From: Staphylococcus phage vB_SauM-UFV_DC4
Sequence record: MZ779063.1
Direction: 5' to 3' (one strand)
Length of the DNA stretch: 64,000 bases
The notes under the pieces are model-generated. The model did no database searches. It worked only from the letters and a program-made list of their open reading frames with translations, and was not told where the DNA came from. Below are positions 581-58,901 of the stretch, one piece after another (positions within the stretch are counted from its first letter, which is position 1; every line of letters starts with the position of its first letter). The translations under genes were made by a program, and so were the position numbers.

Positions 581-609
581 TAGCTTTTTTATAAAAAATT
601 TGTTATAAT
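581..609 (+). promoter_or_regulatory. sigma-A-like promoter with extended -10 (tagcttttttataaaaaatttgttataat)
   Basis: TGnTATAAT at 600-609; near-identical 29-nt element recurs at 17135-17163. Confidence 0.4.
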
Positions 610-1956: not shown

Positions 1957-2027
1957 TTTTTCAAAAGGGATAATTCCAATGAAGATAATATACTTCATTG
2001 GAACCCTTTAATTCAAATTTTGGTTCA

Positions 2028-2072
2028 AATATATATTATAAGATTGTAGAATATTAAGAGCATGATATTCTA
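2028..2072 (+). promoter_or_regulatory. phage promoter-like motif (aaatatatattataag) followed by hairpin tagaatat..atattcta
   Basis: one of >=12 copies of ATATATTATAA motif followed by stem-loop upstream of plus-strand genes. Confidence 0.45.
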
Positions 2073-2109
2073 TAAATATATTCATTATTATAGGAGAGTG
2101 TATTAAGAT

Positions 2110-4251
2110 ATGACAAAAGACAAAACACAAAGAATGGTAGAAATTGAAGATAAGCGAAGTCATGAGTTTTTATCAGAACCTCTATTAATGCCTAATGTTA
2201 ATAGAACTAATGGTAACAGATCTCAAATGTTTACATCTCACATTGGTCAATGTATTCAATTAACTGGAGCTGAACCACCTTTGATTCAAACTGGTTTTGA
2301 AAATCAAGTAGGTAAATATTCAACTGGATACAAAAAAGCTAATAGAGATTTTGAAGTTATTTATAAATTTGAAAAGAATAAGTACGTTAATTACTATTTA
2401 ATTAAGTACAAAGATAATGATGAATATGATGTAATTATTAGAGAAGAAGCTAATCATTTAGCTGAGAAGTTCGGAAATAAATATAATAATGATGAAATTG
2501 ATAAACTAAAAGTTGGAGATACAGTTAGTAAAGAAACTGTATTATTTAAGGATCAAAACTATGATGAAGATAATAATTTCCAATATGGTGCTAATGCAAC
2601 TTCTGTATTCTTACCATTCAAAGGCATGACGAATGAGGACGGAATTGTAGTATCAGAATCATTAGCAGAGAAAATGTCAAGTTATTTTGTAAATGTAATC
2701 AATATCACTATCAATACAAACGATATTCCTTTAAATTTATATGGAAATGAAGATGAGTATAAATCATTTCCAGATGTAGGTGAAGAAGTTCAAAATGGAG
2801 TATTGTGTGCAACTCGTAGATTGAATTACGATGAGATTATTCATAAATTTAAAAATGAAATGCTTACTAAAACATTAGAAGATGATAATGCTTATAAAGT
2901 TCACGGTAAAGTTATTGATATTGATGTACTTAATAATGAAGATATTGAAAAATTAGAAAATCAAAAATATTCAGAGCAATTTGTTAAGTATATTAAAGAA
3001 TTAAGACACTTTTATAAAACATTTGTAACTGTTACAGATGATATTGTACGTAAAAAGAAATTTAGTAATGATTTAATTAGAATTCATAATAAATTTAAAG
3101 GTTATATTGATAATAATGCTAAATTAGTTTATGATAATAATCAATTTGATAAAATCATCTTCAGAGTTAAAGTTTTAGAAAAGAAACCTTTAGTTCATGG
3201 ATCGAAAATCACCACACGCTATGGGGGTAAAGGAGTCGTAGCTGAAATTGTACCTGATGATCAAATGCCAATGATCACAGAGTTCGATGGAGAAGACTTC
3301 ACTAAAGATTCTACTAAAACACCAATTAGTAAACGAGTAGATTTAATCCATAATAATATGGGTATCATTAACCGTGGAAATCCATCAGCTTTAATTGAGT
3401 TAGAATTAAATCATGTATCAAATGTAATAAGACATCGTATAAGTAAATTAGATGATGTTAATCAACAGAAAGAATATCTATTAGGATATATTAAAGATGT
3501 AGATAAAATTTCATATGATAATTATGTTAAATTATTTAATCAATTAGATTTATCTGAAACTAAAGAAGCTATTAATGAAATTATTAAAGAAGGTATTGTA
3601 TTACATCAAGCACCATTCTTTGGTAATATTGATTCAGAACAATTAAGATACGTATTTAATAAATATAATATTAAGAAAAATAGATTAAACATAAGTAATA
3701 GAACGTTCATGGTTGGAGATTTATATCACTTAAAACTTAAACACGAACCCTCAGGGAAATTAAGTGCAAAATCTCTAGACTTTAACAATTACAGTGGAAT
3801 ACCTACTAGAACCCCTGATAGTAAAAAGTACTTGTCAAGAATTAATAATAATCCACTCAGAATTGGCGAGATGGAAACGTCTAATATGATGATCGGTGGA
3901 TCTATTAAAGCAATCAATCAATTAACGAATATGTATTCAAATAACCCAGATATGCGTAAACGTTTATTAGTTGAATTGTATACAGGTAATCCATTTAAGA
4001 TTAATACAGAGAGTATACAAAAACGAACTCAAAATAATAATACTAAAGTACTTAATGCTTACTTTAGTCCATTGAATGTTAGTATGACATTTGATGAACC
4101 TGAAGAAGATGAATTACTAAATATTATGGATTTAAATGAAGATCAATTAGAATTCTTAATGGAAAAATACGAAAATTTAGATGATATCAATGATTTAACA
4201 CCTCAAGAAATAAATGGTTTAGTTAAAGAAATTATTGAAGAAAGTAAATAA
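2110..4251 (+). CDS. multisubunit RNA polymerase beta-subunit, C-terminal segment (split rpoB-like)
   Basis: TRYGGKGVVAEIVPDDQMPM...DLIHNNMGIINRGN matches RpoB RHGNKGVISKINPIEDMPY...VDIVLNPLGVPSRMN; NPLRIGEMETSNMMIGG matches GGQRFGEMEVWALEAYG. Confidence 0.8.
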   Translation: MTKDKTQRMVEIEDKRSHEFLSEPLLMPNVNRTNGNRSQMFTSHIGQCIQLTGAEPPLIQTGFENQVGKYSTGYKKANRDFEVIYKFEKNKYVNYYLIKYKDNDEYDVIIREEANHLAEKFGNKYNNDEIDKLKVGDTVSKETVLFKDQNYDEDNNFQYGANATSVFLPFKGMTNEDGIVVSESLAEKMSSYFVNVINITINTNDIPLNLYGNEDEYKSFPDVGEEVQNGVLCATRRLNYDEIIHKFKNEMLTKTLEDDNAYKVHGKVIDIDVLNNEDIEKLENQKYSEQFVKYIKELRHFYKTFVTVTDDIVRKKKFSNDLIRIHNKFKGYIDNNAKLVYDNNQFDKIIFRVKVLEKKPLVHGSKITTRYGGKGVVAEIVPDDQMPMITEFDGEDFTKDSTKTPISKRVDLIHNNMGIINRGNPSALIELELNHVSNVIRHRISKLDDVNQQKEYLLGYIKDVDKISYDNYVKLFNQLDLSETKEAINEIIKEGIVLHQAPFFGNIDSEQLRYVFNKYNIKKNRLNISNRTFMVGDLYHLKLKHEPSGKLSAKSLDFNNYSGIPTRTPDSKKYLSRINNNPLRIGEMETSNMMIGGSIKAINQLTNMYSNNPDMRKRLLVELYTGNPFKINTESIQKRTQNNNTKVLNAYFSPLNVSMTFDEPEEDELLNIMDLNEDQLEFLMEKYENLDDINDLTPQEINGLVKEIIEESK

Positions 4252-4259
4252 AACAAATT

Positions 4260-4291
4260 GGAGTAATGATCATTATTTTGATCATTACTCC
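4260..4291 (+). terminator. stem-loop (ggagtaatgatca..tgatcattactcc), possible terminator/processing site
   Basis: 13-bp perfect inverted repeat after rpoB-like gene; weak T-tract. Confidence 0.35.
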
Positions 4292-4305
4292 TATATTTAA
4301 AGGAT

Positions 4306-4860
4306 GTGTTTAAAATTTATCCTGATTATGATGAATTTTTAAAGAAAGAGTTGGATCGCTTTGGAATTGATACAGATAACGTAGCTTATCATTCTAATAT
4401 TAATTATCGTTATTGTAAAGAGGAATTAGAATCACTTGAAAAGGAAGTTGAAGAAATGGAAATTAATTATTTGAATTTAGAAGATATATCTTTAAATAAA
4501 GAAGAGACAAGTGGAGTTATGACTATAAGAGAATTAGTAAATACTATTGATCACTTGATATATACAGAAAATGAAGTTACACCTTTATACTACTTCTTTA
4601 TGGATAAAATTGATTCACTTCCTATGATTAATATGATTACTTATAAAAAGGCAGCTAACACATTCTATGAAGAATATAAAAGATATAACACTGAAAATCA
4701 TTCAGCTTATATAAATATTAAAGGAGAATGGAAACAGTTATCATTTAATCAATTTAAAGAATCTTTAAAAGAAGTTTTATTATCTTCACATAAAGAAAGC
4801 AATGTTGATAAATTATTTAAAGAGTTAAATAATTTAGCTGTAAAAGATAATTTTTCATAA
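4306..4860 (+). CDS. hypothetical protein (start uncertain, GTG in track)
   Basis: 184-aa ORF, no in-frame ATG near start; no SD at proper spacing. Confidence 0.45.
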   Translation: MFKIYPDYDEFLKKELDRFGIDTDNVAYHSNINYRYCKEELESLEKEVEEMEINYLNLEDISLNKEETSGVMTIRELVNTIDHLIYTENEVTPLYYFFMDKIDSLPMINMITYKKAANTFYEEYKRYNTENHSAYINIKGEWKQLSFNQFKESLKEVLLSSHKESNVDKLFKELNNLAVKDNFS

Positions 4861-4887
4861 TTGCTCTTAGATCAAAATTAGTAATAA

Positions 4888-4937
4888 GCATATATTATAA
4901 ATATGAGACAATGTTCATTAACTTGATCATTGTCTCA
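4888..4937 (+). promoter_or_regulatory. promoter-like motif gcatatattataaatatg + hairpin tgagacaatg..cattgtctca
   Basis: motif copy; hairpin overlaps the ORF-track start of the next gene, arguing the true start is downstream. Confidence 0.45.
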
Positions 4938-4967
4938 TATATTGTTTTATTTTTTATAAATAAGGAG

Positions 4968-6857
4968 ATGAATTGGATAATGGAAAATAATACATTAAAT
5001 TCGTATATAAAGGAAGATTTTAAATATTTTAAAGATGATAAATTAGAAATTGATGAAATATTTAACTTTAAAGATGATAAGACTAAAGAAAAATTTGAAA
5101 CGTTTTTTAATGGAGTTATATACACATTGAAAAATTTGAATTATGTTGAATTATCTGAAATGTATAATGAATCAATTAAAGAGAAAGGTAATACTCAAGT
5201 TAAAGCTGAAAGTTATATAGATTATTTAAATAATGAATTGAAAAATAAAAGACTAAATAAAGAAACTAAAAAACTTTATAAAGATTTATTAATGACTTTA
5301 GAAGATGATTTGAAAAGATATAATGCTAATTTAGATGACAGCATTATAAATAAATTATTCAAAAATAAGTATATATCAATATCTTATTATAGTTTAATAG
5401 TACCGTATAATATTGCTAACGAAATTGAATTTAATAAAAACTATTATAGTTTTCTTGAATTAGAAGATTTTGTTAGATTCATAGTATTTCCGTATTATCA
5501 GCTTTTATATCTATCTAAAGATAATTTAAGAAATATTTATATAAAGAATACAGATATAAATCTTCATGATTATTTTATTGATATAATAAAGAGTTATATT
5601 AAAAATTTAATAGATAATAAAGATGTAGATACACTAAAGGATTTATTAGATGTGTTAACAAATGAGCACGAATATCTAAGATCCCCAAAATATACAGACT
5701 ATAGAAAAGGTAATGGTAGAAATTTATTTGAGTTGCTAATAGATATGAATTTCAATGAATTTAAAGACTTATTATATGAAATGATATATATTATAATGAA
5801 TAATAATCTAAAAAAAGAATTACAAGTAGAAATGAATTATGATATATACAAACACAATATATTTTTAATAAGTTTAATGAATGATGAAGTAGAAAGTCAT
5901 AGACAACCTAAATTTAATGATAAATTTTTAATAGAGAGTAATAATACAATTAGAGCTACTGCAAGTGCAGATTTATACAGTAAAAATAATTACTACCAAA
6001 ATAACTTATTAGGTCACTATATTAATGATCTATATGTAAATAAAAATAAAATAAATAAATTTAAAAGGGTTAATAAAGTTAGAAGTCTTAAATCTTTTAT
6101 TTATTTAACTAACCAAAGATGCATTATCGGTGGTGAGTCATATTATAAATATCTATATAAATATTTATTTGATCCAAGTAACTTAACTAGAGAAGAGTTT
6201 GAAGTATCTACATTATTAATTAAATTGATAACTTGTAAGTCTAGTAATCAATTAAAGAAAGTTATGGAGAATGCAAAAACCAACTCTATATTAAATAATC
6301 TTTTATTTGAAACAGAAATTAATGATATAATTAAAATTGGTATAGAAATGAATATTAATACTATATTCAATGAAAAGGGTTTAAGTAAAATTAATACAGT
6401 TGATTTAACTGTAGGAAATATTGTAAAACCTTTGTTATATAATAACGCAAATGATTATGAAGAACAAACAGAAATCATTAATTCAATATTTAAAAATTTT
6501 ACTTATGATATAGATATCAATTTTGATAAATATCATTATAAAGATTTAGATGAATATTTTGAAAGTAGATTAAATTTAGGTCTTTTAAAAGAATCAAATA
6601 TAGATATTAGTATTAATATTAATTATAGTAAAATTGCAAAAACTATTGTAAATAATATTAAAGATAAACTTAGAGGAAAATATGATTTTGAAAAGAATGA
6701 GTTTATTATTACTTATGATAAGATGAATATTACTCGTTTAACTTCTACAGAGTTTTGTAATGGGTTATGTGAATATTTAAGTAAATACTTCCCAGAAGAA
6801 GCTAAAAAGTTAAATAAGAGTTTTAGAGCTGAAATTGTAAATACAATGTTTAGATAG
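4968..6857 (+). CDS. hypothetical N/K/Y/I-rich protein (start ATG 4968 or 4979)
   Basis: long ORF; AAGGAG at 4962-4967; ORF-track start 4911 lies inside upstream hairpin. Confidence 0.5.
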   Translation: MNWIMENNTLNSYIKEDFKYFKDDKLEIDEIFNFKDDKTKEKFETFFNGVIYTLKNLNYVELSEMYNESIKEKGNTQVKAESYIDYLNNELKNKRLNKETKKLYKDLLMTLEDDLKRYNANLDDSIINKLFKNKYISISYYSLIVPYNIANEIEFNKNYYSFLELEDFVRFIVFPYYQLLYLSKDNLRNIYIKNTDINLHDYFIDIIKSYIKNLIDNKDVDTLKDLLDVLTNEHEYLRSPKYTDYRKGNGRNLFELLIDMNFNEFKDLLYEMIYIIMNNNLKKELQVEMNYDIYKHNIFLISLMNDEVESHRQPKFNDKFLIESNNTIRATASADLYSKNNYYQNNLLGHYINDLYVNKNKINKFKRVNKVRSLKSFIYLTNQRCIIGGESYYKYLYKYLFDPSNLTREEFEVSTLLIKLITCKSSNQLKKVMENAKTNSILNNLLFETEINDIIKIGIEMNINTIFNEKGLSKINTVDLTVGNIVKPLLYNNANDYEEQTEIINSIFKNFTYDIDINFDKYHYKDLDEYFESRLNLGLLKESNIDISININYSKIAKTIVNNIKDKLRGKYDFEKNEFIITYDKMNITRLTSTEFCNGLCEYLSKYFPEEAKKLNKSFRAEIVNTMFR

Positions 6858-6873
6858 AAAGGGGAAATTAAAG

Positions 6874-7428
6874 ATGGATGTTAAAAGAACGTTTAATGTA
6901 GATATTATGCAGACAGATAGAAGAATTTTCTATAACATTATTAACGTAGAAATGTCTATTAGTGATAAAAGAAAAATGTATAATAAAGTCAATGATGAAA
7001 ATGAGGTTTTAACATATGTATTTGATAGTTACACAGATTACGTATTGATGGAAAATGAAGGTATAATGACTATGGCAAAAGATTTAAATGATTTCATTAA
7101 ACATTCTATTTTCGATTACCATTTTTCCTCTTTAATAAAACAATTTTTACCTTCGACCAACTTCCGGAATTTTGGAGAGTTTGTCCGTATGTTAGAAAGA
7201 GAATTATTTGTACCTAATCAAGAAACTTTAAGTCAATTTTCTTCAAAAGAAGATATGATTTATGTGTATTATAATACTACTCTAAATAGAATAATCATTG
7301 TTGATCACATTATGTACTTAAAAGCACTAATGGAGTATGTTAAAGAAGAAAAAGAATTCTATGGAGATTTATCTATAGAATTTGAAAAAGAAGTTAAAAA
7401 ATATTTAGTTAAAAATAATCTTAAATAA
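6874..7428 (+). CDS. hypothetical protein
   Basis: 184-aa ORF with GGGGAAA SD. Confidence 0.5.
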   Translation: MDVKRTFNVDIMQTDRRIFYNIINVEMSISDKRKMYNKVNDENEVLTYVFDSYTDYVLMENEGIMTMAKDLNDFIKHSIFDYHFSSLIKQFLPSTNFRNFGEFVRMLERELFVPNQETLSQFSSKEDMIYVYYNTTLNRIIIVDHIMYLKALMEYVKEEKEFYGDLSIEFEKEVKKYLVKNNLK

Positions 7429-7445
7429 AGGAGAGATAATATTTA

Positions 7446-8180
7446 ATGAATGGATATGGCAAAATTAATAAAAAAGTTTTTAATATAGATCGTAGCAACT
7501 TTGAAGTAGTTTTAATGGACTACATGGATACTAAACAGATGAAAAATAATTACAATAGAGATATAACCGATCAAGAAAAAATTGATCGGTTAATACCTTT
7601 AATTAAACAACAAGAAAATGAACAAGATGAGGGCAAAATATTTGAAAATGCTAGAAGATATGAACTTCTTTTAGCTAAAACATTTGAATACTCTCTTAAT
7701 GGAAAATTAGAATTATACAAATTAAAAGAAGTATTAAATTATTACGAAGAAAAAAATCTTTTTAATATAGTATATCCAAATTTTAGATACACTTTTAATG
7801 TAGAATCTCCTAGTAAAGAGTATTCCTTATTATCTTTAAAAACTAAAATATTTTTAATTATAGAAACTATTATAGATTTTATTAAAAATGATTATGTAGA
7901 AGATAATCTTTCTATTAAGTTAATTTTAAATTCAGAAGAAATAATGATTGATACACTTGATTTAAACGAAAAATCTTTGTGTAATACCTTTAGTCTACAA
8001 TATACAAATGAATTGTTATCTTATAATGGAGCTTATTTATTCTCACATGATCAAGTAAAAAGTATAGAAAATATAAATAATATTTTATTTAAAGATATAT
8101 ATAAAGACAAAGATAAAGAAATCTTAGAATTTATATCTAAGAAAGTAAAAAATAAATATATTTCAAAATATTTTAAATAA
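7446..8180 (+). CDS. hypothetical protein
   Basis: 244-aa ORF, AGGAGAGA SD. Confidence 0.5.
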   Translation: MNGYGKINKKVFNIDRSNFEVVLMDYMDTKQMKNNYNRDITDQEKIDRLIPLIKQQENEQDEGKIFENARRYELLLAKTFEYSLNGKLELYKLKEVLNYYEEKNLFNIVYPNFRYTFNVESPSKEYSLLSLKTKIFLIIETIIDFIKNDYVEDNLSIKLILNSEEIMIDTLDLNEKSLCNTFSLQYTNELLSYNGAYLFSHDQVKSIENINNILFKDIYKDKDKEILEFISKKVKNKYISKYFK

Positions 8181-8197
8181 ATAGGAGTGAATAGGAT

Positions 8198-9367
8198 ATG
8201 TCAAATTTAACTATGCAAGAAAAAGACTTAATTATGATTGAAAATAAGTATAATAGATTTTTAGATAAAAAGGAAAAGATAATGAATAAAGAATCAGACT
8301 TTATTAAAATTGCATTTGAAGAATTAATGGACTTCGTTGTACATTTTGGACATAATAAATTCTTTAAATCAGACACAATATTTTATAGAGAATATGATGA
8401 GATGTTAGAGAATTATAAAATGGAATTAAATAAAATATCTAAAGTGGAAGATGATTTAGTACTAACGTATTTAAATAAAATTATTAATGATACTGATAAA
8501 GTTGAATTCTATAATAACATGAAGAAAATTTCAGAAAGTTATAGTAAAGAAAAATTAATCGTATCTATATCATATATAAAAGCTTTGGACTTCTATATAC
8601 ACATGATGCGAAATGAAGAATTAATGAGTGATATGGGATCTCTTACAGTTCATCCTTATGATTTTAATAAACGATTAATAAGTGAATATAAAAAAGATAA
8701 TATATTTTGGAGAAAACTAAGTGATGAAGAAAAGTCAAATGCAATTCAAATGTCTAATATATATTTTGAAGGTATTGAAAATAAAGAAATTGGTAGATTT
8801 ACCACTGAACATATAAACAGTGAAAAAGAAGGAACTGTATTTAATTTTAATATAAATACATTTCATAAATTTTTCGATCAATTTGTATCTTTGGATATAG
8901 CTTATACAGATGGTTTAATATTTAACTTAATGATGAACAGTAATATCAGTAAATATTATGAGAAATACTATAAAGAAATAGAACATGATATCTTCAATGC
9001 TAGTTATATTTCTGATAAATATGACTATGAAAACTTAGAAGAAGATAAATTTTTAAAAATCTTAAATCGTATAGATATGTTTTATAATGTGAATATACCT
9101 TTATATATTTATAATAGTGGAGAAACATCAAATAAAAAATACTATAATTATCTAACTGCTATGAAGTCTTTTGCTTTAAATGATCTTGTTAATCGTTATT
9201 ATGATTCTTATGAATATATAGAATATTTTAGCGAAGTTAGTGTCAATGATTCTTTCACGTTAGATATGTTAAGTGACGATGATGAAAGTGAATCAAATTA
9301 TTTTGGAGAATTGAATAAAAAAATAAAGAAAGAAAATGAAGAAAGACAATGGCTACAAGCTTTTTAA
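8198..9367 (+). CDS. hypothetical protein
   Basis: 389-aa ORF, TAGGAGTGA SD. Confidence 0.5.
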   Translation: MSNLTMQEKDLIMIENKYNRFLDKKEKIMNKESDFIKIAFEELMDFVVHFGHNKFFKSDTIFYREYDEMLENYKMELNKISKVEDDLVLTYLNKIINDTDKVEFYNNMKKISESYSKEKLIVSISYIKALDFYIHMMRNEELMSDMGSLTVHPYDFNKRLISEYKKDNIFWRKLSDEEKSNAIQMSNIYFEGIENKEIGRFTTEHINSEKEGTVFNFNINTFHKFFDQFVSLDIAYTDGLIFNLMMNSNISKYYEKYYKEIEHDIFNASYISDKYDYENLEEDKFLKILNRIDMFYNVNIPLYIYNSGETSNKKYYNYLTAMKSFALNDLVNRYYDSYEYIEYFSEVSVNDSFTLDMLSDDDESESNYFGELNKKIKKENEERQWLQAF

Positions 9368-9397
9368 AATTTATTTAAAGAGAAGAGGAGACAATTT

Positions 9398-9601
9398 ATG
9401 ATATTTTTAATTGGTATATTAATCATTATTTTAATTTGGTTGGAGATAATATCATTTTCTTTATTTATATCAAGTCTGATAAGTTTACCATTTTCAATAT
9501 TTGACACAGGAACAAGTGATTTTATTAAAGAAGATATAATAACAGCGTTTCTATCAGGTTTATCTACCGTCATAATCTTTTTCATATTATCATCGTTCTA
9601 A
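9398..9601 (+). CDS. small membrane protein (2 TM)
   Basis: 67 aa, two hydrophobic helices; AGAGGAG SD. Confidence 0.45.
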   Translation: MIFLIGILIIILIWLEIISFSLFISSLISLPFSIFDTGTSDFIKEDIITAFLSGLSTVIIFFILSSF

Positions 9602-9619
9602 TAAAAAGGAGAGAACATT

Positions 9620-9847
9620 ATGTTTGCTTTATTGGGAATATTAGCAATAATATTTTTATTATTAATATTTATAGGTTTACCTTTATTTGTCATGGGAGTG
9701 GCTTGCATATTTATGTCACTTTATGAAATCTTTGTGGAAAAAGAAAAAGATATTGACATGCTACTGACATCGACTTATATAACACTTGGGTCGTCACTTG
9801 CATTAGGTTTAGCTATCTTTATATCATTTTGTGTTGAAAATATGTAA
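9620..9847 (+). CDS. small membrane protein (2-3 TM)
   Basis: 75 aa hydrophobic; AAAGGAGAG SD. Confidence 0.5.
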   Translation: MFALLGILAIIFLLLIFIGLPLFVMGVACIFMSLYEIFVEKEKDIDMLLTSTYITLGSSLALGLAIFISFCVENM

Positions 9848-9874
9848 TCATTTAAAATAAAAAGGAGAAATATT

Positions 9875-11863: not shown

Positions 11864-11865
11864 TT

Positions 11866-12759
11866 ATGAAATATTATAAATTAAACCAGACAGGAATTGC
11901 TGAAGTATTAGGTATTAGCGGTGAAATGATTTATTGTTACAATCATGTATTTAGGGAAGATGAACTATATCTTAGTGAAGATGAGGAAATTAAACTATCA
12001 GAAATGATTACTAATTACAAAGCAATACCAAAGTATTCAATTGAAAGCATAAATGAAAAAAATATAATAATCACTGCTTATATGGAAGTTGATATGGATG
12101 AAATGGGTACTTTCAGAATAGCTTCTGAAAATTTTAAGTTTGATAAAAAATGTACAGTTGAGGATATCTATAAAATTGTATCTGAAAAAGTATTAAATAA
12201 ATATTTCTCATTTAGTGAAATGAAAGATAAATTGTATCCATTTCATTATGAGGAAGTGACTGAAGAAGAATATAAAAAATATAAAGGAGAATTAATTATG
12301 AATTATTACAAACTAACAGACGAAGGTATTGCAGAAATATTTGATATTAGTGGATTAGATTATGAATTTATGGATTTTACTGAAGATAATAATCAAATAT
12401 TCAGAAATGAAAGTCTTTATTTAAGAGAGGATGAAGTAATACCTCTCTTCAGTATTATTGGATATAGTGTTACTAAAGAATGTGTAATAACTAAAGAAGA
12501 CGATAAATTAGTTGCAAAGGGTGAAACTAAAATATCTGTAGAAGATGGATATGCTAATTTAAGTGTCATTGATTTAGATTTTGATGAAAATAATACAAGT
12601 TTAAAAGATCTATATAAACAATTAGATGAATATTGTAGAAATGAGAAATTTAATATTATTGATTATATAGAAAAAAGAAATTTAAAAGAAGGATATGATT
12701 ATAGATTAGTTACAGAAAAAGAATATAAATATAATAGAGATGAAGAAAATTTTAAGTAA
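11866..12759 (+). CDS. MKYYKL/KENFK-family protein, fused tandem duplicate (two units in one ORF)
   Basis: MKYYKLNQTGIAEVLGI...EEEYKKYKGELI joined directly to MNYYKLTDEGIAEIFDI...EKEYKYNRDEENFK. Confidence 0.6.
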   Translation: MKYYKLNQTGIAEVLGISGEMIYCYNHVFREDELYLSEDEEIKLSEMITNYKAIPKYSIESINEKNIIITAYMEVDMDEMGTFRIASENFKFDKKCTVEDIYKIVSEKVLNKYFSFSEMKDKLYPFHYEEVTEEEYKKYKGELIMNYYKLTDEGIAEIFDISGLDYEFMDFTEDNNQIFRNESLYLREDEVIPLFSIIGYSVTKECVITKEDDKLVAKGETKISVEDGYANLSVIDLDFDENNTSLKDLYKQLDEYCRNEKFNIIDYIEKRNLKEGYDYRLVTEKEYKYNRDEENFK

Positions 12760-12775
12760 AAGTAGGTATTAAATT

Positions 12776-13234
12776 ATGAAATATTATGAATTTAATAAAA
12801 AGGGAATTATTAAAATATTAGGATTGGACACAGCTTATTTAAAAGAAGATGAAGACATTTTTAGAGAAGGGAATCTTTATTTAAAAGAAAATGAATCAAT
12901 AAAGATAAAAGATATTATAACAAATAAAAAAGATATGGAGTTTAATTGCAGTATTTATGAAGGGTCTGAAGATAACTCATTAATGAAAGCTAATTTAAAT
13001 TTCAGACATGGGTCAGGACAACTTTTATTAAATATTGAATATATTGATTTAAAAGAAATAAAAGATCGCACTGTTGAAGAAGTTTACAGATACGCTAAAG
13101 ATTTAGTTTTAAATAAAACATTTTCTTTTAATAAAGCTGAAGAGCTTGGTATATGTTTATATGAAGGAAAAGAATATGAAGAAATTACTGAGGAAGAATA
13201 TAAAAAATACAAAGTAGAAAATACTTTTAAATAA
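12776..13234 (+). CDS. MKYYKL/KENFK-family protein
   Basis: MKYYEFNKKGIIKILGL ... EEEYKKYKVENTFK. Confidence 0.6.
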   Translation: MKYYEFNKKGIIKILGLDTAYLKEDEDIFREGNLYLKENESIKIKDIITNKKDMEFNCSIYEGSEDNSLMKANLNFRHGSGQLLLNIEYIDLKEIKDRTVEEVYRYAKDLVLNKTFSFNKAEELGICLYEGKEYEEITEEEYKKYKVENTFK

Positions 13235-13254
13235 TGAAATGAGGTGTTATTGTT

Positions 13255-13704
13255 ATGGACAAATATTATAAATTAACAGCGGAAGGTATATTTGATGTTT
13301 TCAAATTAGATAAAAAACACATTATATTCCCAGAAGATAAAAATACAATAATAGATTTCAGATCAAAGGAAGAACGTATAGAGAAAATTAATGAACTTAT
13401 ATACTTTAAAGATAATCAAGAAATAACAATAAACTCATTATCTAATTTAACAGACAATATTGTAATAGATAAATCAGGTTCTAAATATACATTTAACCAT
13501 TTAATAGAAATATCATTCACTACCTTTAGTCATAAAAAAAGATATAACAAAACAATCAATGTACCGAATGTATTTAACGGAACTGTAAGAGAAAATAGTA
13601 GTAGAAGTGACTTAGATATACCGATAGATATCAACAATATTGATAAAATAGAATTAACATTTAAAGAATATAGAGATCTAGTAATAAAAGAAACTTTTAA
13701 ATAG
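13255..13704 (+). CDS. MKYYKL/KENFK-family protein
   Basis: MDKYYKLTAEGIFDVF ... KEYRDLVIKETFK. Confidence 0.6.
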   Translation: MDKYYKLTAEGIFDVFKLDKKHIIFPEDKNTIIDFRSKEERIEKINELIYFKDNQEITINSLSNLTDNIVIDKSGSKYTFNHLIEISFTTFSHKKRYNKTINVPNVFNGTVRENSSRSDLDIPIDINNIDKIELTFKEYRDLVIKETFK

Positions 13705-13716
13705 GAGATATTATAA

Positions 13717-14166
13717 TTGAAATATTATAAATTAAATAAAGATGGTTATATTAAATTTTTAGGATTAGATGTTATGCCTGGACTTAAAACCCCAATTATT
13801 GAAAAAGAAATAAAAAATAAAAACTTCATTGTCAAATATTGTAATGGAGCAGATTTTTGTTTTACATTAGATGAAATTAATAAAATGAAAAACAAAGATA
13901 TTTACCCTAAACTTGGATTTGAAAGTTTAACTGAAAAAGTTAATCATGAAATAGAGAATAATCCAATAGTATTTGTTAATAGAAAATATGAAGATGCTAA
14001 ATCTTTAATGCATGTAGATTTAATTATCAATAATGAAGAAATTACAGTAATGACTATGGCAAGATTTAATATTAATTTTTTAAATGATAATTTGTATATG
14101 AAATACTTTGATGAAATAACAGAGAAACAGTATAAAAATATTATAGTAAAAGATTCATTTAAGTAA
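13717..14166 (+). CDS. MKYYKL/KENFK-family protein (TTG start)
   Basis: MKYYKLNKDGYIKFLGL ... EKQYKNIIVKDSFK; TAGGAGA SD 8 nt upstream of TTG. Confidence 0.55.
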   Translation: MKYYKLNKDGYIKFLGLDVMPGLKTPIIEKEIKNKNFIVKYCNGADFCFTLDEINKMKNKDIYPKLGFESLTEKVNHEIENNPIVFVNRKYEDAKSLMHVDLIINNEEITVMTMARFNINFLNDNLYMKYFDEITEKQYKNIIVKDSFK

Positions 14167-14177
14167 AACTCAATTTA

Positions 14178-14227
14178 AATATATATTATAAAATTGTGAA
14201 AGATGTATGATATTTATACATCTTTCT
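14178..14227 (+). promoter_or_regulatory. promoter-like motif aaatatatattataaaattg + hairpin gaaagatgtat..atacatctttc
   Basis: motif copy with downstream stem-loop. Confidence 0.45.
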
Positions 14228-14260
14228 AAAATATTTATTTAAAGAGAGGTGAAAAAGATA

Positions 14261-14677
14261 ATGGGTTCTAATTTTAATTATTATATATTGCAATCGAGTA
14301 TTTCAGAAGCTAGAAAAAGGATTAAGAATAATCTAGATGTAAATGGATATATGGTTATAAGACAAATATTTTTCAGTCATTTAGATTATAAAGATTATTA
14401 TAATATGTATCATAAAGTAAATAATGTAGAAGATTATTACAATGATATTATATTAGAAAGTATTAAGGATATTATATTTGATGAAGAAGGTAAACTTAAT
14501 GAAGAAGTAGCATTTAGTTTAATTAAAGGTTCTAATTCGAATATATGTGCTTTAATTAAAGATAATAAAGGTAATTACAAAATTTATAAAAAAGATAAAT
14601 ATGTAATTAAAGCTATAGAAGATTTATTATCTGAGAAAGATTATAAAAGAATATTGGTTAAAAATACTTTTAAATAA
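14261..14677 (+). CDS. KENFK-family protein (divergent N-terminus)
   Basis: ends EKDYKRILVKNTFK; ATG 14261 preferred over ORF-track GTG 14249 (GGTGA SD spacing). Confidence 0.5.
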   Translation: MGSNFNYYILQSSISEARKRIKNNLDVNGYMVIRQIFFSHLDYKDYYNMYHKVNNVEDYYNDIILESIKDIIFDEEGKLNEEVAFSLIKGSNSNICALIKDNKGNYKIYKKDKYVIKAIEDLLSEKDYKRILVKNTFK

Positions 14678-14722
14678 TTTGAAAGTGGATGCAACTTACT
14701 TTTATTATATTACAAGTGAGAG

Positions 14723-15388
14723 TTGGTGATTTTATTGATAAAAATGCATTTAATAAACTTTCAAAAAAGGTCTATGAATAGTTATAAGAAGAATTTAAAC
14801 ACAATTGTACTTTTCATAGATTATGATAAAAATATTTTCAACCAAATTAATAATCAATTAGATATAGATGTATTAGGTAATGATACTATAAGATTAAATA
14901 ATGCTAATTATTCATTAATGTTAGATGAGAAGATTTTTAGTTCTGAAAGGACAACAATTGATTTCTATAATAAAATAGTAAATAATGATATATTAAATAT
15001 TATTAAAGAAAATATATCTAATGTAGATAATTATTCTAAATTAAAAGAAATCAATAATATGACTGATAGTGAATTTAATGATATTATTAATAAAGATAAT
15101 TTATTTAAATGTCAAAATAAATACTTCAGTATGAATAAAATACCTTATATAGAAAAAGAAATATCTGAAAGTTTTTATCTAGATCATTTTAAAGAGATTA
15201 ATTTAGATTTTATATTTGAGAAGCTTTTTGAAGAGAATAGAGAAGATGAAGAAAAATTAAAGTACGTTTATACTTTAGCTGAATTATTTCTAACACTCAA
15301 ACAAGGTAAGAATATATTTTATAATTATAATAAAGAGGTAGATAAGAAATATTATAGATCTATATTTATAAATTCTTTATTTAATTAA
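14723..15388 (+). CDS. hypothetical protein (start uncertain)
   Basis: 221-aa ORF; internal ATGs at 14744/14774 are possible starts. Confidence 0.4.
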   Translation: MVILLIKMHLINFQKRSMNSYKKNLNTIVLFIDYDKNIFNQINNQLDIDVLGNDTIRLNNANYSLMLDEKIFSSERTTIDFYNKIVNNDILNIIKENISNVDNYSKLKEINNMTDSEFNDIINKDNLFKCQNKYFSMNKIPYIEKEISESFYLDHFKEINLDFIFEKLFEENREDEEKLKYVYTLAELFLTLKQGKNIFYNYNKEVDKKYYRSIFINSLFN

Positions 15389-15389
15389 T

Positions 15390-15707
15390 ATGATAAGAAA
15401 GGAGAGAAATAATATGAAGAAAATATACGGATTTAAAATAAAATATAATAAAAAAGTGGTAGATACTTTCACTTTTGAAAGTTTTGAAGAAGCTATGAAT
15501 AAACTAGAATTATCATTATTAGAAATTTATGACTCAGAAGATTTTACAACTATGCAATTAATTTTAAACACATATGACATTGAAGAAATTAATGAAGATA
15601 GTTTTAAAGATAAATTAAGACTAAATCATCTTAATCACATTAAGAATTTTAGTATTGAATTGTTTTCTAAATATATTAACACTGATAAGGAAGAAGGAAT
15701 TGCATAA
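15390..15707 (+). CDS. hypothetical protein
   Basis: 105 aa, AAGGAGAGA SD. Confidence 0.45.
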   Translation: MIRKERNNMKKIYGFKIKYNKKVVDTFTFESFEEAMNKLELSLLEIYDSEDFTTMQLILNTYDIEEINEDSFKDKLRLNHLNHIKNFSIELFSKYINTDKEEGIA

Positions 15708-15922
15708 TGTTTGAAGAAAGTAAAGTACCATTTTCATTTATTTATAAAGAAACTAAATATTTCCTACACAGAAGAAATATTAAGAATTTCCCTAATGGAG
15801 ATTCTGAATTCTTATTGTATGGAGATGAAAATGGGAAGTCATTCATAATAGAAGAAAGTAAATTAGAAAACTTAATTGAACAACATGAAGTTGAAGTATC
15901 TTACGAAGAAGATATTATTTAA
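15707..15922 (+). CDS. hypothetical protein
   Basis: 71 aa, TAATG overlap coupling with upstream gene. Confidence 0.4.
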   Translation: MFEESKVPFSFIYKETKYFLHRRNIKNFPNGDSEFLLYGDENGKSFIIEESKLENLIEQHEVEVSYEEDII

Positions 15923-15970
15923 ATATATATTATTAAATTGAGGTAATGACATATTATTTGTCATTACCTC
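15921..15970 (+). promoter_or_regulatory. promoter-like motif aaatatatattattaaattg + hairpin gaggtaatgaca..tgtcattacctc
   Basis: motif copy; 12-bp perfect stem. Confidence 0.45.
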
Positions 15971-16002
15971 TAATATATTAAAAATCAAAGGAGAAAACAA
16001 AC

Positions 16003-16386
16003 ATGAAGAAATTTTTAGTATTACCATTATTATTCGTTTTATTATTAACAGGGTGTTCTCAGGCTGATAAAGTTAGCCAAAATATGTCTGAAGAGTCAGA
16101 TAATTTTAATGTAGTTAGAAAAGTAACTGTTATAAATGCTATTAAAAATGATATTATTTTTCAAATGTCTGGACGTATGTCTATTAAAGCAGATAAAGAA
16201 GACAATCAATTAGAAATAGTTGTAGAAAATGAAGATGGTAAATATCAGAAACACATCATTGGTTTATCTGATAATGTTTCATATACTGTTGAGGATGTTA
16301 CAACTAAGAATGTAAGCAAATACCAATATGAAATTAATTATAATCCTAAAATGTGGATTCCTGCAAAACCAGATTATAAAGACTAA
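16003..16386 (+). CDS. lipoprotein (lipobox LLTGC)
   Basis: MKKFLVLPLLFVLLLTGCSQ signal peptide plus lipobox. Confidence 0.6.
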   Translation: MKKFLVLPLLFVLLLTGCSQADKVSQNMSEESDNFNVVRKVTVINAIKNDIIFQMSGRMSIKADKEDNQLEIVVENEDGKYQKHIIGLSDNVSYTVEDVTTKNVSKYQYEINYNPKMWIPAKPDYKD

Positions 16387-16415
16387 TTATTATAATAGAA
16401 TGGAGAGAATGACTT

Positions 16416-16724
16416 ATGTCTAAGAAAAAGAAATTAGAAAAAAGACTTAATGTAAGAATTAATCAAGAACAAAAGAAAGCTATTTTAAAACGTGAAGATA
16501 TCGATAGAATGGATTTTGAGTTCATTACATTAGATAAAGAGAAACATGATGAAGAAGAAAAATTTGATATCAAAGTAAAATCTAACGATAAGTTTTCTCT
16601 AATTATCATTATTAAATTCTTTTCTAAATTGTTGAATTTTAGTATTAAAAGAGATAAGAAAAAAGAAAAAGTTAAAGAAGATATAAAAGATGATAATGAA
16701 GTTTCTAATTTAGATAAGAAATAA
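16416..16724 (+). CDS. hypothetical K/E-rich protein
   Basis: 102 aa, low complexity. Confidence 0.35.
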   Translation: MSKKKKLEKRLNVRINQEQKKAILKREDIDRMDFEFITLDKEKHDEEEKFDIKVKSNDKFSLIIIIKFFSKLLNFSIKRDKKKEKVKEDIKDDNEVSNLDKK

Positions 16725-16726
16725 TA

Positions 16727-16768
16727 AAAATGCCATAATACACAATTTAAGTGTATTATGGCAAATTA
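16727..16768. terminator. bidirectional terminator (tgccataataca..tgtattatggca)
   Basis: 12-bp inverted repeat flanked by A-run upstream and T-run downstream, between convergent genes. Confidence 0.5.
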
Positions 16769-16769
16769 T

Positions 16770-17072
16770 TTATTTTTCAGGTTTAAAACGGTCTTTAAGT
16801 CTAGGATATAGACGTAGATGCGCTTTACGAGTAGGATCTGTAACAACAATTTGATTTGTTCTAGGATTTCTACGTTTACGCATATCTTCAGGTTTAACTT
16901 CAAGGACACCAATTTCAGGGATAATAGTTTTAGTTTGATCAGCATCATTTGCAGATTCAACAATTATTTCTATCATCTCATTATAAGCATCAACTAGTTC
17001 TCTTTGTGTTAATCCAGTACGTCTAGACCATTCTCTAAAGAAGTGTTTTTGATCTTGAATTTGATTTAGCAT
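16770..17072 (-). CDS. HU/IHF/TF1-family histone-like DNA-binding protein
   Basis: LTQRELVDAYNEMIEII N-terminal helices; beta-arm MRKRRNPRTNQIVVTDPTRKAHLR resembles HU ARKGRNPQTGEEIEIPA. Confidence 0.7.
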   Translation of the reverse strand: MLNQIQDQKHFFREWSRRTGLTQRELVDAYNEMIEIIVESANDADQTKTIIPEIGVLEVKPEDMRKRRNPRTNQIVVTDPTRKAHLRLYPRLKDRFKPEK

Positions 17073-17134
17073 TTTATTAGTTCCTTTCCATATAATATAT
17101 TTTTAATTTTTTTAGAAAATTGTTAATATTTTAC

Positions 17135-17163
17135 TAGCTTTTTTCTAAATTTTATGATATAAT
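17135..17163 (+). promoter_or_regulatory. sigma-A-like promoter with extended -10 (tagcttttttctaaattttatgatataat)
   Basis: near-identical to the 581-609 element; TGaTATAAT. Confidence 0.4.
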
Positions 17164-17263
17164 ATTGTTATGGAATTTCTTAGTTGTAAAAAAATAATTT
17201 TTTGCAATAACTTAAATTTTTATATGGTTTCGAATTTTTAATTATAAGGAGAGTCAGATATCG

Positions 17264-18886
17264 TTGGGTAATTATTTAAGAAAAATTACGAAGAATATAC
17301 AAGATGAGGTCAGTACAAAAGAGTCATTTAATGAGGATGTAATATACTTTAGGGAGAATGAAAACCTAGAAGATATTATATCTGATATTTACAAATCAGT
17401 AGAATTTATTAAAGGCGTAAAATTCATTGATTGTAAAGTTGTTCCTCCAAGTGAAGTTTATGAGTACAATCAAATGACAGACAAACAATTTAAAGCAAGA
17501 GATTTTAGAAAAATCAACGTAGAAGAATCAAAACTATTAGAAGTTCAAATTACTGTAGAATTTGAATCAGCTGAAGGGGAAAAAGAATTATACACACATA
17601 AATTAGATTTCCCTGAACTTATAGAAGGTCAGTATTATTATATTAATGATAATAAGTTCTTCCCTATCTTACAATTAGCTGATACTGAATTCTATAAACC
17701 TAAAGCAAGTACAGTAGTAATGAAAAACTTATTACAACCATTATCAGTAAATGGTTCTAAAAAAGATGAACTTATTGATGATGATAAGAAAATGCCTAAG
17801 AAGTTAAGAGGTAGAACATTATACTTAGAAGTATTTAATAAAAATAAACCTGTTCCAGCATTTTTATTCTTTATTGCTAAAATGGGTCTAGATGAAACAT
17901 TTGAATTCTTAGATATTAAAGAATATTGTGAATTAGTAGATACCAACGATGAAAAAGATGATAAACACTACTATTTTAGAATTAATAATAAAATAACTAT
18001 TCAAGTTGATAAAGAATGGTTAGATCAAGACGATAGATATAGAACTTCTATGGTCTTATGTATTAAAGATTTGTTTAAAGGTATGAGAGCAGGATTAGAT
18101 AAAGTATATGATAAAGAATTCTGGCTAAAAAATTTAGGATCTGTATTTAGTGGTTCTACTAACGTTGACACTAAAATTGAAAAAGCTAATTCTATGATTT
18201 TATCATTTGATAGAATTTTAGATAGTCGTACTAAAAATATTTCTAGATTAGATCCAGAAGATAAAGAATCAACTTATCATGTAGTTAAATACATGTTTAA
18301 AAACTTTGATAATCTTAATTTATTAGATAATACAGATTTAGCTAATAAACGTTTAAGAGTATTAGAATACTTAACTTATCCACTGAATAGAAAGAACTCT
18401 GATACATCTTATCGTATGATTAATTTCACAGATAAGAAACGTACAATTAAAAATCTTAAGGGATTATTCTCAGGTGTACCTCGTGATTTCTTATTAAAAA
18501 CTATAGGAACATCTGAAGGAATTAGATATTCCAATGCAGTTAATACAATTGACTTATTTACTAGAATTCTTAAAATGACTAAAGCAGGTCCACAAACTGC
18601 TGTTGATACTAGTAAACCATCTATTAGAACTATTAATATCAATAATACTTATTTCGGTAGAATTGATTTAATAGCAACATCTTCAAACAATCCAGGTATT
18701 ACACGTACATTAACACCATTCTGTGAGGTTAAAGATCCTGGTGAGAATGGTTCATTCTATTTTGAAAATAAACCTAACATCAGAGAAAATATTGACACAG
18801 ATAATTTAGATAAACTAGAGAAAGAATCTGAAGACAATGAAGTTGTATTAGATATTAAAGAAATTGTAGAAGAGGATGACGAATAA
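17264..18886 (+). CDS. putative RNA polymerase beta'-like subunit, N-terminal segment (TTG start)
   Basis: translationally coupled (TAATG) to downstream beta' segment; AAGGAGAG SD 10 nt before TTG; no strong conserved motif recognised. Confidence 0.45.
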   Translation: MGNYLRKITKNIQDEVSTKESFNEDVIYFRENENLEDIISDIYKSVEFIKGVKFIDCKVVPPSEVYEYNQMTDKQFKARDFRKINVEESKLLEVQITVEFESAEGEKELYTHKLDFPELIEGQYYYINDNKFFPILQLADTEFYKPKASTVVMKNLLQPLSVNGSKKDELIDDDKKMPKKLRGRTLYLEVFNKNKPVPAFLFFIAKMGLDETFEFLDIKEYCELVDTNDEKDDKHYYFRINNKITIQVDKEWLDQDDRYRTSMVLCIKDLFKGMRAGLDKVYDKEFWLKNLGSVFSGSTNVDTKIEKANSMILSFDRILDSRTKNISRLDPEDKESTYHVVKYMFKNFDNLNLLDNTDLANKRLRVLEYLTYPLNRKNSDTSYRMINFTDKKRTIKNLKGLFSGVPRDFLLKTIGTSEGIRYSNAVNTIDLFTRILKMTKAGPQTAVDTSKPSIRTININNTYFGRIDLIATSSNNPGITRTLTPFCEVKDPGENGSFYFENKPNIRENIDTDNLDKLEKESEDNEVVLDIKEIVEEDDE

Positions 18887-20196
18887 TGGCTAGATTTTTA
18901 CTTAAGAATAAAGACTTATCAAAATTACCAGTAGTAACAAATCATGAATCAATTGATAAGAAAGGTGATTTCACTGAAGACGGTATCTTCAGTGAGAAAA
19001 TCTTTGGACCTGATTCAGATGTAGATAATATTACAAATGAAGCTATAGTTTATTTAGGTAATAACTATATTATTACACCTTTAGGATATGACAGAATTAA
19101 AAAATTAATAGGTAGAAAAAGATTTGCTGAAATTATTAGTTCTGAAAAACCTATTGATGAAAATGGTAATGTAATTGAACCAGAAGATGACCATAATTCA
19201 TATATTGGTTTAGTTGAATTTAGAAAGAACTTCTTAAAGATTCTTAAAGAAGAAGTTAAACGTGATAAACGTAAAACTAAAGATTACAATAGAGTTGTTC
19301 AATGGTATTTAAATGGAACATTATTCCAAAATTATGTAACTGTATTTAGTCCTAAATTAAGACCGGCTACAGTTAATAAAGCAACTAAGACATTTAGACA
19401 TTCAGAAATTAATAAAGAATTTAATTTATTAATTGCTCATAGTAATAGTCTTAAAGAATTAGATGAACATTATACAGATGATTCAGTTGAACTACAAAAG
19501 TTAAACCTACTTAATAAAATTCAAGATGACAACATGAATATCTATGATCGTATTATCAATGAAAACATTAAAGGTAAAATGGGTACTATTCGTAAATTAA
19601 TTATGGGTAGTCGTGTAGGATATTCAGCTCGTTCAGTAATTGTTCCAGCTCCTGATTTAAAATTAAATGAAATTAGAATGAATTATACAATCTTCTTAGA
19701 AATATACAAACCACTATTAGCTAATTTAATGTATGTAACGGAAAATATTCCATTACCTAAAGCAGAAGAAATATTAGGTAGAGCTTTAGATAACTTTAAT
19801 CCTAAAGTATATAAATATATGAAAGAATTAGTTAACAAAACTGAAGGTGGAATGAGAGTAATTTTGAACCGAAATCCATCTATCTCAGAATCATCAGTTC
19901 AAATATTAAAAATTAAAGATATCATTAGTGATATTGACTCAGCTGTAGTAGGTATTAGTAATAATATACTTGCAGGTATGGGTGCTGACTATGATGGAGA
20001 CACATTGAATATTATAGCTCTCTTCTCAGAAGAGCAATATGATATGTTAAAAGTACAAGATCCAGTCAATCAATTAATATCATATAATGATGGTCTATTT
20101 AATAGAACTTATTCACTTAATAAAGACTCACAGATTGCAGTTTATTTATTAAATAATCCTAAATCAAAAGATGTAAGTATAAAAGCTAGTAAATAG
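18886..20196 (+). CDS. multisubunit RNA polymerase beta' segment carrying catalytic DYDGD motif
   Basis: [30 protein letters not shown] matches RpoC [53 protein letters not shown] matches [23 protein letters not shown]. Confidence 0.8.
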   Translation: [436 protein letters not shown]

Positions 20197-20204
20197 ATTT
20201 TTTA

Positions 20205-20237
20205 GAATAACGGTCTTATCAGATCGTTATTCTTATT
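20205..20237 (+). terminator. rho-independent terminator (aataacggtc..gatcgttatt)
   Basis: stem plus T-rich tail. Confidence 0.45.
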
Positions 20238-20258
20238 AAATAAATATGACTGGAGACA

Positions 20259-20897
20259 TTGACCATGAACAAAAGACAAAGAAAGAAATTAGAGAAGAAA
20301 AAATTAGAAGAACAAAGTAACGAAAAAATTATAGATTTGCCAAAATTAAAAGAAGAAAAGGATGAAGTTAAAATGAATAAAGAAGTTAAAAGAGAAGGAT
20401 CTTACAAGAAATTAACTAAGGAACAAGTACATTATATTGCAGAATTAATTGACAAAGGACACGGAAACACTTATATTTTAAAAGAACTTAAAGCTAAGTT
20501 TGGTATTGACCGTAAATCACATTCAATCACACATATTAGACGTGGTGAACATCCTACATTTAAAGCACTTACAGATGACAATTATCAATTTGCTGAAGTG
20601 GGATATCCTACATTTAATGAATACAAAAAGATTTTACGTGGAGAAGTTAAACCTAAAAGTAAAACACGTGTAAAAGCTGAAGAAAAGGTTAATAAAGTAA
20701 AAGAATCACCAGTAGTAGAAAAATTATCTAATGTTACAGAAGAAAAAGTAGAACAAGTAAAAGAAAAAATGAGTAATATTCAAAAAGATAAAGAAACTGG
20801 TAAAGAATATCGTGATAAAGAAAGTATTCATAAAGCAGGTAAACCTCAAGAAACTATCTTTGATAAGATTATCAAACGTGTTTTAAATATTTTATAA
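20259..20897 (+). CDS. basic K/E-rich protein with possible HTH (putative DNA-binding/regulator)
   Basis: LTKEQVHYIAELIDKGHGNTYILKELKAKFGIDRKSHSITHIRRGE helix-turn-helix-like segment. Confidence 0.4.
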   Translation: MTMNKRQRKKLEKKKLEEQSNEKIIDLPKLKEEKDEVKMNKEVKREGSYKKLTKEQVHYIAELIDKGHGNTYILKELKAKFGIDRKSHSITHIRRGEHPTFKALTDDNYQFAEVGYPTFNEYKKILRGEVKPKSKTRVKAEEKVNKVKESPVVEKLSNVTEEKVEQVKEKMSNIQKDKETGKEYRDKESIHKAGKPQETIFDKIIKRVLNIL

Positions 20898-27981: not shown

Positions 27982-28004
27982 TAAGAAGAAAAGAGTGAAA
28001 TGAA

Positions 28005-28472: not shown

Positions 28473-28503
28473 AAAATAAATAAAAAGAATAGAGGAAAAT
28501 AAA

Positions 28504-33151: not shown

Positions 33152-33168
33152 ATAAGGAGAAATTAAAA

Positions 33169-58820: not shown

Positions 58821-58901
58821 TTATAAAAATTATTTAAGATTATTTAATTACCATTAATCTCATTTATATAATATATATTTAAATAATGTTTATAATTTTA
58901 T

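Follow-up and report, generated by a model that had tools for sequence, protein, structure and literature searches.

What does a phage RNA polymerase (RNAP) look like when its large subunits are encoded in pieces, and how many pieces are there? The question is raised by a 64,000-nucleotide (nt) stretch of Staphylococcus phage vB_SauM-UFV_DC4 (MZ779063.1), referred to below as the window. An initial annotation of its sequence had proposed that the phage encodes a multisubunit RNAP like those of AR9 and phiKZ, split into pieces with separate genes: a C-terminal half of the beta subunit at 2110-4251 and an N-terminal region of beta' that would itself be divided into open reading frames (ORFs) of 540 and 436 amino acids (aa) at 17264-18886 and 18886-20196. 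The three ORFs exist exactly at these positions and the general proposal holds, all three matching chains of the AR9 non-virion RNAP (nvRNAP). The upstream member of the supposed beta' pair, however, is a beta subunit. The window very probably carries three of the five nvRNAP genes of an AR9/PBS1-like, uracil-DNA Staphylococcus jumbo phage (S6/PALS_2), namely those of the C-terminal half of beta (beta-C) and of the N-terminal halves of beta and beta' (beta-N and beta'-N). No evidence contradicts this subunit assignment. The present data document the homology, the identity of each subunit and the gene boundaries, together with the conservation of the latter. The three genes are as follows.

2110-4251, plus strand: nvRNAP beta C-terminal subunit, 713 aa, ATG start, uninterrupted
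17264-18886, plus strand: nvRNAP beta N-terminal subunit, 540 aa, TTG start
18886-20196, plus strand: nvRNAP beta' N-terminal subunit, 436 aa, ATG start, complete and uninterrupted

The AR9 enzyme is composed of gp105 (beta-N), gp089 (beta-C), gp270 (beta'-N), gp154 (beta'-C) and the sigma-like gp226 (PDB 7S00, 7S01, 7UM0 and 7UM1; PMC9209446). The three ORF proteins were each searched against all PDB sequences, Pfam and PHROGs, and the E-values linking them to AR9 chains are well outside chance. The product of 2110-4251 aligns with gp089 (7S00_C) at E 8.4e-143 (residues 13-669 on 10-656 of 665). Further PDB matches are phiKZ gp71 (PHIKZ071; E 6e-21) and bacterial beta subunits (about 5e-12). 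It also matches PF00562 (E 1.9e-9) and phrog_3295 (E 2e-104), so that its identification as a beta C-terminal half is borne out. The G-K-G segment of the beta active site reads RYGGKGV (aa 370-376, nt 3217-3237) and is aligned to RYGNKGV of AR9.

The product of 18886-20196 matches gp270 (7S00_d) at E 4.2e-69, residues 21-424 lying on 46-448 of 448. Other PDB matches are bacterial beta' (about 1e-13) and cyanobacterial gamma (about 2e-12) subunits, and the profiles found are PF00623 (E 3.2e-10) and phrog_2987 (E 8e-50). The catalytic motif was correctly read as DYDGD; it occupies aa 368-372 (nt 19987-20001). Its presentation as a departure from DFDGD is not sustained. The motif of gp270 is also DYDGD (residues 370-374), with a conformation as in other RNAPs (PMC9209446), and among 46 database clusters of relatives of the window beta'-N, 20 have DYDGD, 12 have DFDGD and one has DLDGD. 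Since DYDGD is the commoner form among homologues, tyrosine in place of phenylalanine is the normal state of this family.

The 540-aa ORF aligns almost end to end with AR9 gp105 (7S00_c; E 2.9e-73, residues 18-518 on 13-493 of 496) and with phrog_2943 (E 2.6e-41). No beta' chain was matched among PDB sequences and Pfam gave no match, so that RNAP domain profiles recognise two of the three proteins, beta-C and beta'-N. This probably explains why the 540-aa protein had been taken for a piece of beta'. Its structure was predicted with AlphaFold from an alignment of 19 homologues from which the AR9 and Listeria phage LPJP1 rows had been left out, giving a predicted local distance difference test score (pLDDT) of 77 and a predicted template modelling score (pTM) of 0.78. 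In a Foldseek search of the PDB the best match of this model is AR9 beta-N (7S00_c; E 1e-34, template modelling (TM) scores 0.77/0.86) and the next is chain E of the phiKZ nvRNAP (TM 0.57). The other 47 matches listed are beta chains of bacterial RNAP entries (chain C or I) or belong to eukaryotic or viral (African swine fever virus, ASFV) polymerase entries, of which they are chain B.

These results bear directly on the possibility that the N-terminal region of beta' is divided into 540-aa and 436-aa subunits by an additional boundary. The only positive arguments for such a division are the adjacency of the ORFs and their one-base overlap, and the missing Pfam match, which leaves the identity of the 540-aa protein not obvious from its sequence alone. 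However, the gp105 alignment covers this protein from end to end and all 50 best structural matches are beta/Rpb2-type chains or split-phage beta-N, none being beta'. Moreover, the 436-aa ORF alone reaches the last residue of gp270 and comes within about 20 residues of its N terminus. We consider an extra split within beta' to be vanishingly improbable. Because both sequence and predicted fold of the 540-aa ORF match beta, it is beta-N, and the 436-aa ORF is a complete beta'-N by itself; beta' is consequently not split further than in AR9.

The window is very AT-rich (GC content 0.19-0.31). Bases 17000-20500 are 99.8% identical at the nucleotide level to Staphylococcus phage S6 (LC680885), 99.5% identical to PALS_2 and 84-97% identical to seven other Staphylococcus jumbo phages. 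This clade adjoins Bacillus phages AR9 and BpSp, is assumed to carry uracil-substituted DNA and includes all five non-virion and all five virion RNAP subunits (Korn et al., bioRxiv 10.1101/2020.12.14.422802). Orthologues of the window proteins in MarsHill/Madawaska/Machias, PALS2, SA1, LY01, AH12 and PB50 are 84-99% identical and share the order beta-N then beta'-N together with the junction between them.

At this junction (GAATAATGG) the beta-N stop codon TAA (18884-18886) shares its last A with the beta'-N start codon ATG (18886-18888). Two signals that precede the starts of the pair were read from the sequence:

17246-17253, plus strand: Shine-Dalgarno-like AAGGAGAG ahead of the beta-N TTG start
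18872-18888, plus strand: putative coupling junction, with Shine-Dalgarno-like GAGGA at 18872-18876 followed by the TAA/ATG one-base overlap

The TTG start and the purine-rich box AAGGAGAG are kept in MarsHill, SA1, LY01, Machias, AH12 and PB50, and MarsHill carries an annotated ribosome-binding site (RBS) at the place matching 17246-17253. The second box, GAGGA, lies 10 nt ahead of the ATG within the acidic tail of beta-N, again at the spot of an annotated MarsHill RBS.

An alternative is that a single gene has been broken by a sequencing error, or that a programmed -1 frameshift produces a beta-N/beta'-N fusion, both of which had been raised to explain the overlap. It is true that the ORFs overlap and that beta'-N is read in frame -1 with respect to beta-N. 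However, stop and start stand at the same place in seven independently sequenced genomes (S6/PALS_2, MarsHill, SA1, LY01, Machias, AH12 and PB50). TAATG occurs in S6/PALS_2, MarsHill, SA1 and LY01 while Machias, AH12 and PB50 have TAAGTTATG, in which a 3-nt spacer replaces the overlap. In LPJP1 a hydrophobic 95-aa ORF separates the two genes, and in AR9, PBS1, BpSp and Yersinia phage phiR1-37 they are tens of kilobases (kb) apart. No slippery X XXY YYZ heptamer was found in the last 190 nt of beta-N. No fused homologue exists among the 66 database clusters retrieved with beta-N and beta'-N: all 20 matches of the beta-N query measure 458-611 aa, and the beta'-N search returned none of fused size (about 976 aa). 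Finally, beta-N and beta'-N are separate chains in the AR9 crystal structure and their termini match those of the window ORFs. The junction shared by seven genomes, the separate AR9 chains and the lack of both fused homologues and a heptamer in practice exclude a frameshift or an error, to which we give next to no weight. TAATG marks an ordinary boundary, at which the gene of one subunit gives way to that of another. With the GAGGA box inside the beta-N tail, the one-base stop/start overlap is best read as a translational coupling of these two subunits.

Of the genes thought to lie elsewhere in the genome, beta'-C does, whereas beta-N proved to be inside the window. With AR9 queries, matches in the window were obtained for gp089 and gp105 (tblastn), for the intron-containing g270 region (tblastx) and for primase. 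No match in the window was found by tblastn/tblastx for gp154 (beta'-C), for gp226 or for the virion RNAP (vRNAP) genes g078, g145, g189 and g264, the thresholds for the vRNAP genes being E 1e-3 (g264, tblastn) and 1e-5 (g078, g145 and g189, tblastx). Homologues of gp154 and gp226 are present in every Staphylococcus jumbo phage of the phage collection searched. The S6 record has beta'-C at 86613-88361 and a gp226-like gene at 130989-132287, both also being found in PALS_2 (E 3e-68 and 3e-36 for the matches in these records). They lie about 95-140 kb from the window genes, in the same genome. The second set of RNAP genes, that of the virion enzyme, is absent from the window and is reported for the clade by Korn et al. 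Two ORFs were considered as hidden subunits and rejected: 4911-6857, which has no PDB, Pfam or PHROG match, and the 212-aa ORF 20259-20897, a candidate for a shrunken gp226, which lacks similarity (best E 1.0) despite its gp226-like place beside primase.

Could the three genes instead belong to the vRNAP, packaged in the virion? Both enzymes consist of split, distantly similar beta/beta' homologues, and the vRNAP beta'-N of LPJP1 is indeed 29.7% identical to the window beta'-N over aa 14-256. Its non-virion counterpart in the same phage, however, reaches 45.9%, and the best, full-length matches of the window proteins are AR9 non-virion chains. The AR9 synteny g086-g089-g095-g103-g105 is kept, and the orthologues in MarsHill are annotated as non-virion. 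A virion enzyme thus appears very unlikely. Since the AR9 virion genes have no match and the LPJP1 virion beta'-N is the less identical, the window gene set is, from sequence comparison, that of the nvRNAP.

The order shared by the window and AR9 is UvsX (g086), beta-C (g089), NAD ligase (g095), HU on the opposite strand (g103) and beta-N (g105). Where beta'-N lies varies from clade to clade. In nine of nine Staphylococcus phage records it comes immediately after beta-N, from which it is separated by the 95-aa ORF in LPJP1. In AR9, PBS1, Goe21, Internexus and BpSp it is encoded tens of kb away on the opposite strand (in AR9, beta-N is at 83 kb and beta'-N at 226 kb), and in phiR1-37 about 60 kb away. 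The adjacency of beta-N and beta'-N is therefore characteristic of the Staphylococcus/Listeria branch. Published annotations show this arrangement, and the literature searched yielded no explicit treatment of it. A primase gene follows beta'-N in the window and gp226 in AR9. In LPJP1 (2075-8049 of extracted locus L009) the vRNAP beta'-N gene ('rpoC1 gamma') is located 1.3 kb downstream, so that non-virion and virion genes are clustered there.

Besides gene order, the likeness to AR9 includes the five-subunit composition at the genome level, the split points as judged from aligned termini, the position of DYDGD near the C terminus of beta'-N and an early-promoter 13-mer ahead of beta-C. The differences are also clear. 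Identity is only 33-39%. The AR9 gp270 gene is interrupted immediately after DYDGD by an HNH-bearing intron whereas the window copy has no intron. Between HU and beta-N (32502-33355 of extracted locus L005), AR9 has the gene of the uracil-DNA-glycosylase inhibitor Ugi (g104) as well as an early promoter, while the window has neither in its 190-nt spacer (17073-17263); any Ugi gene of this phage would thus be elsewhere.

The phiKZ nvRNAP (PDB 7OGP, 8QUE and 9RJS) resembles the window enzyme in having beta and beta' each in two parts, a phage-specific fifth subunit and no alpha or omega, but it is far more distant (about 14% identity in structural alignment) and phiKZ has thymine DNA. The gamma and beta' subunits of cyanobacteria and plastids (rpoC1/rpoC2) likewise represent a large subunit in two polypeptides with DxDGD in the N-terminal piece. 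However, their split sites are different and these cells retain alpha, omega and ordinary sigma factors. Furthermore, the neighbours in cells are halves of one subunit while those in the window are N-terminal halves of two different subunits.

From AR9 we infer how the window enzyme assembles, that translation of its subunits is coupled, when it is expressed and which promoters it recognises. Each of two large bacterial-type subunits would be encoded as two halves, and the four halves would assemble with a sigma-like fifth subunit. Within this complex beta'-N would supply the Mg-binding DYDGD loop, beta-C the RYGGKGV active-site segment and beta-N the lobe/protrusion pincer, which in AR9 also forms part of the pocket for the -10 uracil. 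A single mRNA probably yields both beta-N and beta'-N through coupled translation, because beta'-N directly follows beta-N, the genes overlap at TAATG and a Shine-Dalgarno-like box is located inside the 3' end of beta-N. Of the AR9 enzyme alone it is known that it is absent from virions, is rifampicin-resistant and transcribes late genes from promoters read as uracils on the template strand (PMC5312081, PMC9209446).

A uracil-specific reading of promoters by this enzyme is suggested by analogy. In AR9, beta-N residues R363, K375 and N382 are located at the -10 uracil, on which R363 stacks (PMC9209446). R363 corresponds to R384 of the window protein and is nearly invariant across 21 sequences; the position of V206 in gp226 falls outside the window. 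Two observations do not fit a close parallel with AR9. The other pocket residues are not conserved, K375 being replaced by N397 and N382 by G404, where the alignment contains gaps, and no early motif of AR9 type precedes beta-N on the plus strand of 17073-17263.

This motif, AAATATATATTAT, is the consensus of 26 promoter features annotated in AR9 loci, 25 of which are noted as early. The two signals relevant to the nvRNAP genes are:

2027-2039, plus strand: AR9-type early (vRNAP) promoter motif AAATATATATTAT, exact, 71 nt upstream of the beta-C start
17135-17163, plus strand: candidate promoter TAGCTT-N17-TATAAT with TG at -15/-14 (extended -10, host sigmaA-like), upstream of the beta-N/beta'-N pair

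Six exact copies of AAATATATATTAT occur in the window, beginning at 2027, 14177, 15921, 30025 and 34127 on the plus strand and at 58868-58880 on the minus strand, each with a same-strand ORF 34-71 nt downstream. Allowing one mismatch at most, there are 17 copies versus 7.5 +/- 2.9 in shuffled sequences, none of 100 shuffles reaching 17. The same motif precedes the beta'-C and gp226-like genes of MarsHill. By analogy with AR9 (PMC5312081) the window copies would function as early promoters, and the six exact copies ahead of same-strand ORFs suggest that the vRNAP promoter is unchanged between Bacillus and Staphylococcus phages. The only match near beta-N, at 17092-17104, was rejected as its early promoter since it is on the minus strand and faces the HU gene.

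The spacer ahead of beta-N does contain a conserved block, TTTTATGATATAATATTGTTATG, kept in SA1, LY01, AH12 and PB50 while its flanks diverge. The pattern T(A/T)GCTT-N17-TATAAT with TG at -15/-14 is also found at 581-609 (plus strand) before uvsX, before MarsHill gene 180 (position 725 of extracted locus L014) and before AR9 g087 (position 22130 of L005). It occurs twice in the window versus 0.24 expected, and 581-609 and 17135-17163 are the only two same-strand intergenic TGNTATAAT sites of the window. As a recurrent promoter class, the 18-nt beta-N box was rejected (5 matches with up to three mismatches versus 2.7 expected, not significant). A speculative and rather doubtful reading is that the beta-N/beta'-N pair and uvsX are driven by an extended -10 promoter of host sigmaA type instead of an early promoter, the gene overlap ensuring equimolar and possibly co-translational assembly of the two pincers of the enzyme. 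Conservation of the box in diverged relatives, its enrichment and its recurrence in MarsHill and AR9 are compatible with this. Lavysh et al. (PMC5312081) report that AR9 grows without host transcription, and their remark that they do not exclude action of the host RNAP on a few phage genes is compatible with it as well. If true, the 'host-independent' polymerase of the phage would be produced with some help from that of the host.

The enzyme family itself is already known. The AR9 structure has been solved, DYDGD has been published and the gene pair is annotated in MarsHill, a sister phage, where gp001 ('non-viral RNA polymerase beta subunit') and gp002 are the nvRNAP beta and beta' of the prior annotation by Korn et al. 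The value of the present assignment as a discovery is therefore small and its practical use is the correction of annotations. The S6, PALS_2, LY01 and AH12 records give beta-N as 'hypothetical protein' and the PB50 record gives it as 'beta-prime'; in these five records the 540-aa ORF should be named nvRNAP beta N-terminal subunit. The PALS2 paper (PMC7982418) gives four RNAP genes, beta-N not being among them. In addition, beta'-N of AH12 is labelled 'bifunctional beta-beta'' and beta'-C of PALS_2 is called 'delta subunit'. Work on jumbo-phage transcription may find small leads in the clade-specific pairing of beta-N with beta'-N and in the unusual box upstream of beta-N.

In several relatives, beta'-N or beta-C contains insertions of about 160-180 nt, or of 1.7 kb, that the window copies lack. 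The annotated beta'-N coding sequences of Machias, AH12 and PB50 end at the insertion and so are without the catalytic DYDGD. The shorter insertions are related (75-85% mutual identity) and interrupt the RNAP genes at or beside the codons of the catalytic motifs. Their sites, given in coordinates of the extracted loci, are:

AH12, L002 5980-6348: insertion site
Machias, L011 2799-3167: insertion site
LY01, L010 3488-3646: insertion site
MarsHill, L004 6200-6560 and 7199-7373: insertion sites
PB50, L003 about 7590-7720: insertion site

In beta'-N of AH12 and Machias two tandem copies are located within the DYDGD codons and seem to leave a micro-exon of 8 nt, GCCGATTA. In MarsHill beta-C a 361-nt insertion with two copies splits RYGGKGV. 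Rfam at its gathering threshold gave no matches in the window or in the relatives, and hence no annotated intron or RNA. The AH12 insertion gave only sub-threshold matches to group I introns (36.9 and 24.8 bits versus a gathering score of 50). If the insertions are group I introns, they are unusually small.

Other features of the window were noted in passing. A perfect hairpin of 13 bp flanked by T runs on either side (16731-16763), resembling a bidirectional terminator, lies between the convergent ORFs 16416-16724 (plus strand) and 16770-17072 (minus strand, HU-like). Tandem paralogous small ORFs extend over 11866-14677: 11866-12759 and 12776-13234 are similar at E <1e-5, and the next three ORFs after 13234 have in common, by eye, a MKYYKLN... 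start and a ...TFK/SFK end. A second tandem family spans 27475-28980 (27475-27981, 28005-28472 and 28504-28980). Two minus-strand ORFs, 41056-44052 (998 aa) and 48109-56097 (2662 aa), are paralogous to each other and the former matches tail-protein PHROGs. Finally, the 127-aa ORF at 16003-16386 starts with what appears by eye to be a lipoprotein-type signal (…LLLTGCSQ) and may encode a phage lipoprotein.

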